DNA from: Candidatus Omnitrophota bacterium
GTDB taxonomy: Bacteria > Omnitrophota > Gorgyraeia > Tantalellales > Tantalellaceae
Reading direction: 5' to 3'
Assembly: GCA_043823005.1 (NCBI GenBank)
Contig: JBDRBG010000030.1
Location: 1 to 56,457 of the forward strand
DNA: 56,457 nt
Shown: piece after piece, positions 32,474-44,773 of the stretch
How positions within the stretch are numbered: the stretch's first letter is position 1
Layout: every line of letters begins with the position of its first letter
The notes under the pieces: generated by a model
Seen by the model: only the letters and a program-made list of their open reading frames with translations
The model's database searches: none
Told to the model about the DNA's origin: nothing
Position numbers and translations under genes: made by a program

Positions 32474-32495
32474 CTGGTAGCCCCAAGGGGATTCG
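32474..32495. repeat. attL (displaced tRNA-Glu 3' fragment)
   Basis: CTGGTAGCCCCAAGGGGATTCG is identical to 44752-44773. Flanking bases differ on both sides. Confidence 0.85.
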
Positions 32496-32627
32496 CTACT
32501 GCCGGGTTTATATAACTACAATGATCGCCTTGTTTTGTATGTAACCACCGATAAATAAGGGGTTTATTATCGTTATGTTTCGTGCTTTATCGTGATATCC
32601 CGGATCCTGAAAATACCGGTTTTAGCT

Positions 32628-32654
32628 GTTACCGATGGGAAAACCGATGGGAAA
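32628..32654 (+). repeat. 27-nt island-internal direct repeat, left copy (candidate integrase arm-type site)
   Basis: GTTACCGATGGGAAAACCGATGGGAAA versus GTTACCGATGGGAAAACTGATGGGAAA at 44687-44713 (26/27). Each copy is itself a tandem of (C/T)GATGGGAAA. Confidence 0.7.
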
Positions 32655-32892
32655 TTTTCTCAGCGAAAAGAGGTTTCAATATATTATTGACGACATGATT
32701 GTCACTGTCAAGTCGGTATCTGATAGAATTACCGGTGGATTCGGGAATCAATATTCCTTAGGGTCACAAGGAAAACCAAAAAGAAAGAACCCCCTAAAAC
32801 TTCTGCTAATTTTTTCAATAAAACCAGAACACCAGCCTACGCCAGGAGGTAACAGTGCAAAGGAGTTAAGCAGGAAAAAGCATGCTTACTTT

Positions 32893-32923
32893 TTGTGAAA
32901 TTAACCAGTAGGCGTGTTATAAT
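32893..32923 (+). promoter_or_regulatory. Candidate extended -10 promoter for the two-gene cargo operon
   Basis: TGTTATAAT (TGn plus TATAAT at 32918-32923). A weak -35 TTGTGA lies at 32893-32898 with a 19-nt spacer. The element is 37 nt upstream of the ATG at 32960. In AT-rich DNA this could be a chance match. Confidence 0.35.
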
Positions 32924-32959
32924 GTTATGTGAAAATTAAACTTAATTTGATGGAAAAAC

Positions 32960-35900
32960 ATGAAAAACCCTATAAATAAAAGAAAAATATGCCTAAAAGT
33001 TACTATTTTGACGGTAGTATGTCTTTTATATTTGCATACTATCGTTGGTGCATTGGCCCCGGAGGTGCGATCCGGTACTTTTAACTTCAAGACACGTTTC
33101 TTGAATGAAGCCAATTCTCGCCATTCTTTATCCCCGATCGTAGATACTGTTAGCGGAAGAAAAGATTCATCGATTGTAGCAAATTATAATGCATGGGATG
33201 GAATGATTATTTTTCAGGCAGATAAAGTATCTATTTTTCAGGAAAACGCATCTAAATTTTGCCCTGAGGACCCCGGAGCATTTATTTCAGCGTTGAGACA
33301 ATTTGTAAATACCGGAAAATTATCCCCAATGAGGGTTGATATAGATATTACAAATATTTGTAATAACAAATGTACGATGTGTTTTTCTGCGGATTTTCAA
33401 AAGAAACATCCAGTAATAATTCCAAAAAATAAAATGATAAAGATACTAGAAGATTTAAAGACAATCGGGGTTAAAAGTCTAAGGTTAACAGGTGGCGGAG
33501 ACCCCTTAACTCATCCAGACTTTATATGTTTCGTTGAAAATGCATATAAGCGAGGGTTTAAATTAACCTTAGAAACAAACGGAGATGGTTTGAACAATGG
33601 GATAATAGAAACCATAAGCCGATGCTTTACTCATGTAAGAGTAAGTGTAGATTCAGCTGTTGATAGCACTAGGCAACTAGTACATCAGCCCAAAAGAAAA
33701 GGTGCTACCTATGCAAGATTATTAGAAAACTTAAATAAAATAAAGGCTGAAAAAGAAAGAATAGGACGGCATAATGAATTGCTAATAGGTGCGACATTTT
33801 TGATCTTACCCGAAAATTATAGTGAAGTATATGCTTTCGCGGATGAAATGAAAAATGCAGGTGTGGATTGGATTGCTGTTAGAAAAACATTTAAGGAGGA
33901 TTACTATGACGAACATCCAGAGCATTTAGAGGAGGCGCTAACACAGATCAAAGAAGCCAGGGTTGTTCTTGAAAGTCCTGATTTCAAAATAGTTGGTCCT
34001 TATGGAGTTAGTCGCACCCCAAAAGAAGATTTCAAGGAATGTTTAATAGCAGGAACCAGGCTTGTGATTGTAGCAAATTCGCATATTTCGTTATGCTGTC
34101 TTTTGAGAAGCGGCGTTAATGTGGATGCGATCGATCTAGGGGAAATCGGGGAAGAAAACACACCTGTAATTAAATTGCTTGATGAGAAAAAAGAACAAAT
34201 AGGAGACTTTTTTAATAAAGCTCCCGCTTTTTGCAATGTATGCATTGATGTGGATTTCAATCACTTTTTAAACAGGATCAAGGATTTTCTGGAAGAATCC
34301 CAGGAGAATCTTTTTAGGAGAATGCAGGTATTCCCGCATAGTGGAAGTGAGATCTTAGTAGGAGAAAAAGGTTCGGAAGATGATATTGTTCCTGTATTTG
34401 TGCCCTATGAGCATTTTCGAAAATTCAATGATGGGGAAACGATTTCGTTCAATATGGACGAGATTGTCAGAACATCTAAAAAAATAGATCCGTTTTTAGC
34501 AAGAATAGCAAGGTTTTATCATTTGGAACGAATCTTAATAAGACAACAATCAGTTTCAAAAGAAGCAACACAATCAAAAAAAATATCAGAGCAGTATTCG
34601 GATCTGGACTTTTCTATTTTGAAAAGATTGAGCGAACAATATTTAAAGCCTACAACGCAAATATTAGTAAGCGGAAGCGTGGCTCGAAGACAATCTAACT
34701 TTTATTCTGATTTTGATCTATTTATTGTTGAGGAGACAAGTAATGATCCTGGGATAGGCCCTTTTTTGAGTGCGTTAAAGACTGTTACAGGAAAAGAAAT
34801 TCAAGATTATCATGCATTAAAAGAACAAATGCGGCATCTATATTTTAATTATCCATATGATCGTATGATGATAAATGATACAAGACCGCTTGATAGCACG
34901 AAGAGCTTGTCCGGAATACTCGGAATATCCAGAGAAGAGATTGAAACTAAAGATGCAGAGATTGCATTGTTTTTTTTAATAGGAAACGTTGTAGCGGAAA
35001 AGAAAAGTAAAGGAAAAAGGGATGAAGATATTGATATTAAGCACGATGCAGGGTTGTTTAAATATTTTTCTTTTTTTCTTGCCTCTTTGAACTACTTGTC
35101 AATTCCCCTTAAAAATGAAGACGAACAGTTTATAGAAGAACATTACAGGATTGTTTTGTCTTTCAGAGAAAAGGTGCAGCGTTTTTACGGGAAAGAGACC
35201 AGGATTGTGGGTGAGAAGTTTTTGGAAAATTCGGAAGATAAATTTATTGAGGAATTAAAAGCTTGCATGGAGAGCACGGTAAAATTAGTGAATTCATATG
35301 TGCCGCTAATATTTCAAAAATTGCAACAGAAGCTCCCTGGTCTTGCGGGAGAAGACCTTATGCAGATTTTAAACATAATTAAGGAAGGAAAAGAAGTAGA
35401 GTTTTCGGAAAATACGCCAGAAGCTGTATTAAGTATGTTGGCAGCGTTTTCAGAAAATGAGCTAATACAAATCAGATTGTATCAAATAGCAAGAAAGAAG
35501 TCATCTTGGTCGACATTATATTTTCTTGCACGCAATGAGAAGTGTCCATATGAAATAGTAGTCAAATTGGCTCAAATGGATGGTTATGTAAACAGGGATA
35601 TACGATATGAAGCAGCTAAAAATCCGAATGCGGATGAAAATGTCTGGAAAAAATTAATGACGGATATACATTTGCCGATAGCTAAATATTGCCGCAAAAA
35701 ACTCGGACGAGAGTTACCCCTTGTTAAAAGAAAAACTCTAGTGGTAGAAAGAGATAAGCCGGATCATTGGCAGCGGGAGATAATGAAAACATACAACATT
35801 GTTTTTAATATTATCGGGAAGGAATCAACAAATGAAACTATCCGGTCACAATTTGAAAAGGCTAAGATGAGGTTTGATGAATTTTGGGAGTCAAGCTCGG

Positions 35901-43580: not shown

Positions 43581-44676
43581 GAGTAAACGTAAATACATTA
43601 AGACCAGATACCAGGGCGTTCGAAGGTATGTAGGAGATGACTGCCTGTTTGAGATATATTACAGGCCGTACCGTGGCGCTAAGCCGAAATATGTGACCAT
43701 AACGGCAAGCTCCGCCGAAGAAGCAAGGAAAGAGCGTGTGCGTCTGCAAAATGAAGATATGAACCTTACAGGTATCAGCCGGAGAGGGGAGCCTATGAAT
43801 TTTGAGGGGTACAAAAGCCTGTTGATAGAAAAATGTAAAACTGAGGATGTCGATAAAACTATCAGGAATTATCTTGCAGTTTTCACAAGGTTTTATACAT
43901 GGCTTTCAGGGGCTCCGGCGAATATTGAAGATCTGAGCAGGATCAATTCTGTAGTTATGGAGCTTTATCACCTATATGTTGTAAATGAGCTGAAGCTGGA
44001 CTGGCGAAATGAGCTGACCAAAATACGCGCGATAATCAAAAAGTTTGTGGATATCGGTAAACGTGACGAGAAAGTTTATACGGATGTTCTGAGGAAGATC
44101 AAGAAACCACCCAGAAAAGAAAAGGCATATGTGGATATATCTCCTGAGGATAAGAAGATCTTCCTGGAATATACCAGGGAAAAGAGGCCTGACTATTACG
44201 GGATATTATACCTTAATATGCGTTTTGGCTGGCGGAGAGAGCAGGTTATTTTACTCAGGAAATCCGACGTTAGCATTGAGCTGGGTAGACCCGTTGCGAT
44301 AACATTCAGGCCGGAAACCACTAAAACGAAGGTCCCGTATGTTTTTAGGGATATTGATGAGCAGCTTGCCGCGGTGTTGAATGAGTACCGGCTTAAAGCT
44401 CTAGGGTCTGAGTATCTTTTCCCGAATAAGTCAGGTGGTAAACATCATTCCAACCATTACACCTCCTGGGTGACAAAGAACAGCTTAAAAGTCCTGGGGA
44501 AGAAGATCCGGCCGCACGACTTCAGGCATGCTTTTTGTACAAAGATGCTGCAGAAGGGTTATTCTAAAAAAGATATTATGGCTGTTACCGGGCATAGGAG
44601 CGAGGGATGTTTCGATATGTATGTTCACGCGACAAGCGAGGGTACCAGGCGGGTTATAGAAAGTTCGGCTCTTTGA
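43573..44676 (+). CDS. int: Tyrosine recombinase / phage-type integrase
   Basis: C-terminal catalytic signature R...HDFRHAFCT...GH...Y (IRPHDFRHAFCTKMLQKG, VTGHRSEGCFDMYVH). It lies adjacent to the tRNA 3' end. Confidence 0.9.
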   Translation: MPKSKRKYIKTRYQGVRRYVGDDCLFEIYYRPYRGAKPKYVTITASSAEEARKERVRLQNEDMNLTGISRRGEPMNFEGYKSLLIEKCKTEDVDKTIRNYLAVFTRFYTWLSGAPANIEDLSRINSVVMELYHLYVVNELKLDWRNELTKIRAIIKKFVDIGKRDEKVYTDVLRKIKKPPRKEKAYVDISPEDKKIFLEYTREKRPDYYGILYLNMRFGWRREQVILLRKSDVSIELGRPVAITFRPETTKTKVPYVFRDIDEQLAAVLNEYRLKALGSEYLFPNKSGGKHHSNHYTSWVTKNSLKVLGKKIRPHDFRHAFCTKMLQKGYSKKDIMAVTGHRSEGCFDMYVHATSEGTRRVIESSAL

Positions 44677-44686
44677 TCAAAAATCA

Positions 44687-44713
44687 GTTACCGATGGGAA
44701 AACTGATGGGAAA
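44687..44713 (+). repeat. 27-nt island-internal direct repeat, right copy
   Basis: See 32628-32654. It lies 38 nt inside attR. Confidence 0.7.
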
Positions 44714-44716
44714 AAC

Positions 44717-44747
44717 AAAAAACCCAGTTCATTGAACTGGGTTTTTA
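44717..44747. terminator. Bidirectional rho-independent terminator
   Basis: AAAAAACCCAGTTC-ATT-GAACTGGGTTTTTA. The 8-bp GC-containing stem is flanked by an A-run and a T-run. It could stop int (+) and the tRNA transcript (-). Confidence 0.7.
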
Positions 44748-44751
44748 TATT

Positions 44752-44773
44752 CTGGTAGCCCCAAGGGGATTCG
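44752..44773. repeat. attR (overlaps the tRNA-Glu 3' end)
   Basis: CTGGTAGCCCCAAGGGGATTCG, identical to attL. Confidence 0.85.

Follow-up and report, generated by a model that had tools for sequence, protein, structure and literature searches.

Islands of the lambda/P4 type are a well-known class of mobile DNA that targets tRNA genes by means of a tyrosine integrase. In these islands, the integrase lies beside the tRNA gene together with an Xis-like gene and a repressor, insertion at the 3' end of the tRNA gene regenerates the tRNA, and short end repeats and arm-type repeats accompany the inserted DNA. We analyzed contig JBDRBG010000030.1 of a Candidatus Omnitrophota bacterium (56,457 nt; this whole stretch is called the window) and found every structural element of such an island in the 12.3 kb (12300 nt) between positions 32474 and 44773. 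This DNA is very probably a site-specific integrative island at the 3' end of tRNA-Glu(CUC). It differs from the general class in being very small and minimal, with no mobilization, replication, or capsid genes, in its Omnitrophota-like host and tRNA-Glu(CUC) target, and in that two genes, giant1 and giant2, make up 78% of its length (9585 of 12300 nt). Thus, the island type is ordinary, whereas the cargo is new and consists of two near-orphan multi-enzyme proteins that are membrane anchored and mobile as a pair.

The Omnitrophota phylum is known for unexplained giant proteins. In the "multi-enzyme metabolic cluster" giants (preprints by Nielsen & Lui, 2026, 10.64898/2026.06.07.730766, and by West-Roberts et al., 2023, 10.1101/2023.11.21.568195), unrelated enzyme domains are tiled with helical HEAT-like spacers behind an N-terminal signal or transmembrane segment, the sequences are unique, and radical S-adenosylmethionine (SAM), NUDIX, kinase, and methyltransferase domains occur across the family. 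The island cargo showed the same combination of several enzyme domains (Pfam) with an N-terminal segment (hydropathy), and its relatives are named Omnitrophota or Omnitrophica. The two proteins differ from the catalogued giants in length, being 1.3 and 1.9 thousand amino acids (kaa), about ten-fold shorter and under the 10-kaa threshold of the catalogue, and in being the sole cargo of a discrete island bounded by attachment (att) sites. On balance, we favor reading the whole locus as an ordinary tRNA-targeting island whose cargo is new and would modify nucleotides, probably in a conflict role; this function is a prediction. The value of the island lies in this cargo and its host, as the element type is a textbook one. 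It is a small, cleanly bounded, and probably transferable unit, and its proteins are short enough to be cloned and expressed, which makes them a tractable model for the function and targeting of fused giants.

Structure, target, and integrase family of the island

The features of the island are listed in Table 1. The window holds two exact copies of the 22-mer CTGGTAGCCCCAAGGGGATTCG, both on the plus strand; no further copy was found in the window with up to three mismatches, and no match was obtained in 100 shuffles. Identity ends at the core, as two of five bases differ on the left and none matches on the right. ARAGORN predicted tRNA-Glu(CUC) as the sole tRNA of the window, and the right copy of the 22-mer corresponds to its last 21 nt (the 3' acceptor strand, CCA, and a portion of the T arm) and one further nucleotide. 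This placement makes the right copy the 3' end of an intact tRNA gene and leaves the left copy as an orphan fragment.

Table 1. Features of the integrative island, with positions in the window
Feature	Position	Strand	Basis or remark
attL core	32474-32495	.	22 bp; orphan copy of tRNA-Glu 3' end; exact match to 44752-44773
Left arm-type repeat	32628-32654	+	Two tandem CCGATGGGAAAA units, 133 nt inside attL
Promoter-like site upstream of giant1	32895-32923	+	GTGAAA-17-TATAAT with TG extension, 10/12; consensus match only
giant1, 1863 aa, multi-enzyme fusion	32960-38551	+	Open reading frame (ORF); Pfam Radical_SAM, ARMT1-like, A_deaminase
giant1 aa 14-32, putative signal anchor	32999-33055	+	Sole strongly hydrophobic N-terminal segment; Kyte-Doolittle mean 2.22
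giant1 aa 63-504, radical SAM module	33146-34471	+	Pfam E 4e-17; CNNKCTMC (CX3CX2C) at aa 134
giant1 aa 540-985, nucleotidyltransferase-like and helical HEAT-like region	34577-35914	+	GSVARRQSNFYSDFDLF (GS...DxD) at aa 572
giant1 aa 988-1242, DUF89/ARMT1-like metal-dependent phosphatase	35921-36685	+	PF01937 E 4.6e-26
giant1 aa 1290-1626, adenosine-deaminase fold	36827-37837	+	PF00962 E 7.8e-32; PDB 6n9m E 9e-17
giant1 aa 1630-1863, orphan C-terminal region	37847-38548	+	No Pfam match at E<=5
giant2, 1330 aa	38575-42567	+	ORF; begins 23 nt after giant1
giant2 aa 7-32, N-terminal hydrophobic segment	38593-38670	+	Kyte-Doolittle mean 1.92
giant2 aa 315-917, O-carbamoyltransferase (Kae1-like and YrdC-like halves)	39517-41325	+	Carbam_trans_N E 3e-37; Carbam_trans_C E 1e-49
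giant2 aa 1057-1330, C-terminal region (~270 aa)	41743-42564	+	Partly shared, only with P0006
XRE-family helix-turn-helix (HTH) regulator, divergent from xis-int	42755-43264	-	HTH_3 E 1.7e-8; PHROG transcriptional repressor E 1.5e-7
Candidate sigma-70 consensus promoter	43283-43311	+	TTGACA-17-TATAAT, 12/12; predicted function
Xis-like small HTH gene, 77 aa	43347-43580	+	HTH_17 E 4.5e-5; overlaps integrase start by 8 nt
Tyrosine integrase, 367 aa	43573-44676	+	PF00589 E 1.2e-13; PHROG integrase E 3.6e-28
Right arm-type repeat	44687-44713	+	38 nt inside attR
Hairpin, terminator-like	44718-44746	.	13-bp stem, T runs on both sides; between integrase and tRNA
attR core	44752-44773	.	Identical to attL
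tRNA-Glu(CUC), intact, integration target	44753-44829	-	ARAGORN

In addition to the cores, the island has a 27-nt repeat, GTTACCGATGGGAAAACYGATGGGAAA, a short way inside each end, and its two copies agree at 26 of 27 nt. Each copy consists of two tandem units of the 12-mer CCGATGGGAAAA, which showed five matches in the window against 0.57 expected, four of them at the two island ends. The tandem pairs, which the preliminary description of this DNA did not record, are likely arm-type integrase sites, judging from their layout at about -40 and +133 nt around the core in an excised circle. An 87-aa ORF at 32635-32898 overlaps the left arm repeat and has no family match; it was treated as noncoding. 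Just outside attL, a 24-nt inverted repeat (32125-32148 and 32373-32396; 96% complementary, 224 nt apart) resembles a miniature inverted-repeat transposable element (MITE).

The integrase carries the strings GWRREQ (aa 219), KTK (aa 251), HDFRH (aa 315), GHRS (aa 340), and DMYVH (aa 348), which were fitted to the catalytic set R-K-H-R-H/W-Y by eye, without alignment to a characterized integrase. Together with the PF00589 match, these strings place the protein among the tyrosine recombinases. The small gene that overlaps it is called Xis-like for its size and position, because its HTH_17 score (24.1 bits) was below the Pfam cutoff of 27; small ORFs abut the integrase likewise in related loci (L091-L096). 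The perfect candidate promoter sits in the 82-nt spacer between the XRE and xis genes and faces xis-int. In this arrangement, the integrase with its Xis-like helper, under the divergent XRE repressor, would recombine attP of the element with the 3' end of tRNA-Glu(CUC), and this recombination would duplicate the 22-bp core and leave the tRNA intact. The preliminary description had proposed an integrative island from a perfect 22-bp direct repeat with its right copy in an intact minus-strand tRNA-Glu and its left copy orphaned, from an integrase, an Xis-like gene, and an XRE regulator at the tRNA-proximal end, and from two ORFs filling about three quarters of the DNA. All of these features were recovered, and they support that interpretation.

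We searched for relatives of the integrase and found 13 proteins with 34 to 48% identity; no relatives were found in IMG/VR. One of them, P0030 (37% identical), is encoded in a 5.1-kb element (L093) flanked by a 25-nt direct repeat (7735-7759 and 12819-12843) that equals the 3' end of tRNA-Glu(UUC). The cargo of this element differs from that of the window island and consists of a DUF3800 protein and a 515-aa protein. Thus, at least one other member of the integrase group lies at a tRNA-Glu 3' end, with exchangeable cargo. Another relative, P0027, was found on contigs L096 and L097, whose gene order is circularly permuted between samples. Such permutation would fit a circular, phage-like molecule of about 15.6 kb that encodes a terminase small subunit, a primase, an HNH protein, and a resolvase.

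Among the island proteins, no transfer, replication, packaging, or capsid genes were found (ORF list, Pfam, and PHROG), so the element could at most excise and re-integrate, and its transfer to another cell would require a helper. The same absence suits another reading, in which an island did insert but can no longer move, having been reduced from a larger prophage, satellite, or integrative and conjugative element to the recombination module and two "moron" genes. The phage-like circle of the P0027 group and the match of the giant2 carbamoyltransferase to an auxiliary, or "moron," PHROG family also fit such a remnant. We consider this reading rather doubtful, as the integrase ORF is intact with its catalytic motif strings, the core repeats are perfect, the arm repeats are nearly so, and the promoter is a perfect consensus. 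It is also compatible with the explanation given above, from which it differs only on present mobility.

Insertion as judged from related loci and composition

The nearest genomes by the YchF protein were L001 (74% identity) and L002 (67%). In both, ychF adjoins tRNA-Glu(CUC), and L001 also retains the genes of the right flank. As tests for an empty site, the two genomes were uninformative, the left flank being absent within 10 kb in both. A scan of metagenomes with the left-flank AAA_22 protein gave closer relatives (74 to 78% identity). One 10-kb contig, L098, carries ROK, ychF (73%), tRNA-Glu(CUC), a 2.1-kb interval, AAA_22 (77%), orf209, and a secretin gene, its flank proteins being 73 to 77% identical to those of the window. 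Its tRNA-Glu region showed 97.6% identity to the window over 82 nt, and no tblastn match to the integrase, Xis-like, XRE, giant1, or giant2 proteins was found on it. The YchF of the window itself was found on no other contig.

Composition also separates the island from its flanks in part. The tetranucleotide correlation to the flank signature was 0.59 to 0.72 in 4-kb segments over the giant genes versus a flank mean of 0.86 (standard deviation, 0.05; minimum, 0.75). Relative synonymous codon usage (RSCU) of the giants fitted the flanks with r values of 0.75 and 0.78, whereas every plus-strand flank gene of at least 490 codons showed 0.85 to 0.91. The GC content at third codon positions of the integrase (0.50) was the highest in the window, the other genes showing 0.31 to 0.40. 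In addition, similarity to another spacer was found for 11 of the 18 flank spacers that are 80 bp or longer and for none of the island spacers. This agrees with the earlier observation that the repeat families of the flanking chromosome were not seen in the island spacers, but it is a weak point because the island spacers total only about 830 nt.

Taken together, these data make the insertion of the 12.3 kb well supported. Some observations weigh against it. L098 does not amount to a clean empty site; the 2.1 kb between its tRNA-Glu and AAA genes differs from the window and holds a RAYT-like transposase gene, a 156-aa ORF, tRNA-Leu(GAG), and a MerR-like gene, none of which occurs in the window. 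A 27-mer spanning the left flank and the core gave no match in JGI metagenome contigs, and no attB or attP junction or clean empty site was found in public metagenomes. The GC content of the island (0.382) is close to that of the flanks (0.388), and the tetranucleotide deviation could partly stem from an unusual amino-acid makeup of two genes as long as these. The equal GC content and the lack of an exact empty site would suit the view that no insertion took place, that the 22-bp repeat arose by chance or local duplication, and that the genes between are native. We consider this view highly improbable, given that a second copy of the repeat appeared in none of the shuffles, that the integrase and Xis-like genes sit directly at the tRNA end, that the flanks lie 2.1 kb apart in L098, and that the tetranucleotide usage departs from that of the flanks.

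The preliminary description had also suggested a recent acquisition, to be checked by an empty site in relatives and by composition. Insertion itself was upheld by the L098 flanks and the tetranucleotide usage; its recency was not, as the date cannot be read from a GC content equal to that of the flanks. L098 agreed with the proposal in part, as its flanks lie close together without island genes but the intervening DNA differs; the junction 27-mer gave no match; and the compositional check was favorable for tetranucleotide and codon usage and unfavorable for GC content.

The region beside attL shows a further difference from relatives. In related loci, tRNA-Leu(GAG) lies between tRNA-Glu(CUC) and the AAA_22/secretin block (L001, 12407-12493; L098, 5647-5732; L099-L105). 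In the window, positions 31417-32473 hold a 112-aa ORF and the MITE-like repeat in its place, and no tRNA-Leu occurs in the window.

The two cargo proteins and their possible role

In giant1, five Lys or Arg residues precede the hydrophobic segment. Equivalent segments were found in its relatives P0003 and P0004; the leader of P0002 was seen in sequence only and was below the hydropathy threshold. The radical SAM module that follows has an N-terminal extension and a Cys-rich C-terminal part. Its best NCBIfam and PDB matches were tungsten-cofactor (W-cofactor) maturase, DesII, SkfB, MoaA, and viperin, all under the family cutoffs. Foldseek matched the module to SkfB (6e-10), DesII (4e-9), and viperins (about 1e-7), and also to BlsE, although the ranking is soft because the model had a mean predicted local distance difference test score (pLDDT) of 56.

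The viperin matches recall the prokaryotic viperins (pVip). The likeness consists of the CX3CX2C radical SAM core, PADLOC pVip matches (E 4e-20 and 1e-17), the Foldseek matches, and the island or defense-type neighborhoods of giant1 relatives. However, the PADLOC matches span only positions 6-139 of the 262 in the profile, which is the generic first half, and giant1 has the Cys-rich part, the N-terminal extension, and fusion to four other modules. Identification of the module as a viperin was rejected, since NF038283 gave 58.3 bits against a cutoff of 180 and matched profile positions 4-151 of 281 only. Viperin was rejected as the nearest relative as well, because SkfB and DesII rank above it (softly, given the model quality) and W-cofactor maturase also matched better. 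Automated "viperin" matches to such proteins are generic radical SAM matches, which is a caution for annotators.

The nucleotidyltransferase-like region matched NTP_transf_2 at E 0.007, under the cutoff. The region with its helical part is kept in P0002 and P0003 and has one stand-alone relative, P0038; Foldseek gave no match at E<=0.001 (model mean pLDDT, 62), and the PDB profile search gave none. The DUF89 domain scored 92 bits against a cutoff of 25, has the DNYGE (aa 1090) and KGDWNY (aa 1195) motifs of the DxNGxE/KGDxNY type that marks members of the family, and matched the damage-control phosphatase 7t7k in the PDB (E 1.7e-9). The deaminase domain belongs to PF00962, with 111 bits against a cutoff of 27 and the motifs HHIH (aa 1290), HAGE, and RIGH. 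It has GTDAP where NTDDP is usual (TDAP for TDDP, the second Asp being Ala), and its substrate may differ, because the domain was under all NCBIfam equivalog cutoffs. The adenosine-deaminase fold is shared with RdrB of the RADAR system and with the CARF-adenosine deaminase Cad1 (PADLOC CARF_ADA, 1.5e-11; RdrB, 0.0017; PDB 8fnv). The window differs from these systems in lacking an RdrA ATPase or a CARF domain, the matches cover about 130 residues, and the best match is an ordinary adenosine deaminase.

Full-length relatives of giant1 amount to two or three in billions of proteins. A word-indexed search of 5.8 billion protein clusters gave three: P0002, a 2710-aa protein of Ca. Tantalella remota (Omnitrophota) in which a guanylate kinase domain separates the nucleotidyltransferase/helical region from the DUF89 region; P0003 (1643 aa); and P0004 (1225 aa), with the radical SAM module and HATPase_c. 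When 1.84 billion representatives were scanned exhaustively with HMMER, only P0003 matched giant1 aa 50-1245 over the whole length. The deaminase and C-terminal parts are not shared with P0002-P0004 by BLAST, and for the C-terminal region a hidden Markov model (HMM) search was negative as well. The radical SAM module also occurs as stand-alone proteins of 330 to 576 aa (30 to 40% identity).

Giant2 would form one operon with giant1, given the short gap between the genes, and BLASTP found no similarity between the two proteins. Its hydrophobic segment is followed by a conserved domain of about 165 aa, the carbamoyltransferase, and a conserved 140-aa extension. The scores of Carbam_trans_N (129 bits; cutoff, 24) and Carbam_trans_C (169; cutoff, 27) place the enzyme in the TobZ/NodU type. 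Among the related enzymes TobZ, NodU, CmcH, NovN, and GdmN, it showed a full-length two-domain match to TobZ (3ven; E 7e-59; aa 317-917 on 14-573) and also matched NovN and GdmN, and the PHROG "Nol-like carbamoyltransferase" matched with E 9e-85. It differs from this family by its N-terminal anchor and by about 290 additional N-terminal and 410 additional C-terminal residues, and it is not a NodU orthologue (125 bits against a cutoff of 1000). Most homologues align to about aa 1056, and P0006 aligns to aa 1271; no significant Pfam match was found for aa 1057-1330. A shared C-terminal sorting domain was rejected. The "hhhhP...A" tail was noted by eye in giant1, giant2, orf796, and P0002-P0004, but BLASTP and an HMM built from the C-termini of P0002-P0004 gave no match to window proteins.

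Twelve relatives of giant2 were found (43 to 58% identity), which share aa 150-1056; by source name, four are from Omnitrophica/Omnitrophic- entries and one is from Dysgonamonadaceae. Most of them are fused to other enzymes, namely PfkB kinase, SAM methyltransferase, radical SAM, and ribulose-phosphate epimerase. A cupin-like (mannose-6-phosphate-isomerase-like) region and phosphoribosyltransferase-type domains were recognized by eye, and other relatives adjoin radical SAM, NUDIX, or sugar-phosphate isomerase genes. For one relative, P0009 (L086), an island at an upstream tRNA-Gln was considered but is not supported, as no att-like repeat was found there. Short motifs recur between domains, with about seven copies of RSELR in P0009 and four of KGSP in P0002; these motifs could serve as linkers or as points of processing in the fused proteins.

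We next considered the gene contexts of the relatives. In L137 (8001-10977), an AbiEi-AbiEii pair (E 8e-47 and 2e-70) directly follows a stand-alone radical SAM homologue. In L136 (8001-14743), a radical SAM-NUDIX fusion, the NUDIX part of which matches PDC-S07, follows smpB and lies less than 5 kb from DUF4238-Pers and AbiJ. These two are the stand-alone homologues whose gene contexts were read, and both lie near Abi genes. The stand-alone homologues may represent an undescribed clade associated with defense islands, and if the clade proved to be an antiviral or antimetabolite synthase, it would add chemistry to nucleotide-based immunity. P0003 is encoded near a HEPN/nucleotidyltransferase pair and P0004 near a Fic gene, and the integrase relative P0028 abuts an AbiEii gene. 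P0002 is encoded in Ca. Tantalella remota (L081, 10001-18133) directly after ftsQ-ftsA, in the usual position of ftsZ, and no FtsZ/tubulin family was listed for any gene of this 28-kb locus.

From these data, we tentatively suggest, at somewhat less than even confidence, that the two giants act together on a nucleotide or nucleotide-sugar in a defense or antimetabolite role. The radical SAM domain would rearrange the nucleotide or nucleotide-sugar, the other giant1 domains would tailor base, phosphate, and hydroxyl groups, and giant2, as an ATP- and carbamoyl-phosphate-dependent enzyme of the TobZ type, would carbamoylate a hydroxyl. The product might be an antimetabolite, or the nucleotide pool might be depleted; the role would be in conflict, most probably anti-phage defense. 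DesII, viperin, MoaA, and BlsE act on nucleotides or nucleotide-sugars, and such a substrate is favored because these enzymes are among the nearest radical SAM structures. It is favored further by the partner domains of nucleotidyltransferase-like, phosphatase, and purine-deaminase fold, by the fusion of one stand-alone radical SAM homologue to NUDIX, and by the repeated joining of the carbamoyltransferase family with kinases, phosphoribosyltransferases, and NUDIX. A conflict role is favored because the cargo is on a mobile island and because of the Abi, HEPN, and Fic neighbors described above. In the literature, we found no mention of the combination of radical SAM, nucleotidyltransferase, DUF89, and deaminase domains or of its pairing with a carbamoyltransferase, and nothing relevant on carbamoyltransferases in defense.

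Several findings weigh against this proposal. PADLOC matched the full gene set of no described system, with partial domain matches for giant1 and none for giant2. P0002 lies in a division and cell wall (dcw) cluster and not in an island, and relatives of giant1 and giant2 did not co-occur elsewhere in the neighborhoods read; the radical SAM genes beside carbamoyltransferase homologues in L087 and L088 were rejected as orthologues of the giant1 module. The association with defense comes from two contexts only (L136 and L137). Finally, the five positive charges before the N-terminal segment would predict export, which is hard to fit with radical SAM and ATP-dependent chemistry.

The last point bears on a different reading, in which episymbiotic Omnitrophota export or deliver the proteins into a host or prey cell, where they would act as effectors or salvage enzymes on the nucleotides of the partner. 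A positive N terminus with one hydrophobic segment occurs in both giants and in most full-length relatives (P0003, P0004, P0006, and P0017), and the variable domains (deaminase, guanylate kinase, PfkB, phosphoribosyltransferases, and NUDIX) read as salvage-type. The window has a type II/IV secretion locus of the kind described as characteristic for the phylum. Of the giant proteins of Omnitrophota, 94% were reported to carry a signal peptide or transmembrane helix, and a host-dependent lifestyle is assumed for the phylum (10.64898/2026.06.07.730766). Nevertheless, radical SAM enzymes need an iron-sulfur cluster, SAM, and a reductant, no twin-arginine translocation motif is present, and the residue after the putative cleavage site is a proline (GALA-P in giant1 and GLAP in P0003). 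A proline in that position disfavors signal peptidase I. To our knowledge, there is no experimental precedent for such delivery, and we consider it quite improbable.

Another reading retains the island and assigns its cargo to the synthesis of a carbamoylated nucleoside or sugar natural product, or to the modification of a surface glycan, rather than to defense. The pathways of nucleoside antibiotics (albomycin, polyoxin/nikkomycin, and blasticidin S) combine radical SAM, carbamoyltransferase, kinase, and methyltransferase steps, and the surface-glycan case would resemble lysogenic conversion, in which O-antigen-modifying islands lie beside int-xis at tRNA genes. All solved relatives of the carbamoyltransferase (TobZ, NovN, and GdmN) tailor secondary metabolites, giant2 homologues are fused to a PfkB sugar/nucleoside kinase, a methyltransferase, an epimerase, and the isomerase-like region or adjoin sugar-phosphate isomerase genes, DesII and BlsE are among the nearest radical SAM structures, and a membrane anchor suits envelope-linked synthesis. 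Cell-surface biosynthesis is also a main cargo class of variable Omnitrophota loci (10.64898/2026.06.07.730766). However, the likeness to nucleoside-antibiotic pathways is one of enzyme class and not of orthology; the giants are fused and membrane anchored, and peptide-ligase, export, and self-resistance genes are lacking. For the glycan case, no glycosyltransferase, flippase, exporter, or resistance gene was found in the island (ORFs and Pfam), adenosine deaminase and DUF89 are atypical of glycan pathways, and the Abi genes beside stand-alone radical SAM homologues point elsewhere. We therefore regard this reading as somewhat unlikely.

Returning to the proposed conflict role, the island might be a vehicle that moves a self-contained and undescribed nucleotide-modifying conflict system between Omnitrophota. 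In such a system, a radical SAM enzyme that is no viperin, fused to nucleotidyltransferase, DUF89 phosphatase, and atypical deaminase domains, would make a carbamoylated nucleotide antimetabolite together with the carbamoyltransferase, and the enzymes might even be exported into a partner or prey cell. This extended proposal is speculative and, in our view, unlikely; if it were true, the fused giant enzymes of the phylum would be horizontally mobile modules.

Other features of the window

To the right of the island, two ORFs without Pfam matches overlap by about 100 nt (46481-49906, 1141 aa; 49803-52193, 796 aa). Both match one 2094-aa ORF in L001, thereby indicating a split or frameshifted giant gene. 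The 1141-aa ORF has an N-terminal transmembrane segment, and L098 lacks the gene, with ROK and ychF adjoining each other. At the left end, an ORF of at least 3160 aa (27-9509) runs off the window. It is followed by ORFs with ATP-synthase-like N termini and then by the type II/IV secretion-pilus cluster, an arrangement that was reported beside Omnitrophota giant genes.

Two or more repeat families occur in most flank spacers, including one, TAAATAGTCGTTAGTCG..., that follows stop codons and another, GATTGCCGCGGTCGCTC..., that resembles repetitive extragenic palindromic (REP) elements (for example, 11883-11923, 16791-16845, 21680-21720, and 32073-32113; 13756-13828, 18811-18921, 23055-23104, and 52666-52721). 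The RAYT-like transposase of L098 is encoded beside tRNA-Glu. GC skew was positive (0.1 to 0.4) over nearly the whole window and fell to about zero only in two stretches with minus-strand genes, 25-31 kb and 45-46 kb. Minus-strand genes also showed a much poorer RSCU fit, indicating a strong strand-specific compositional bias.

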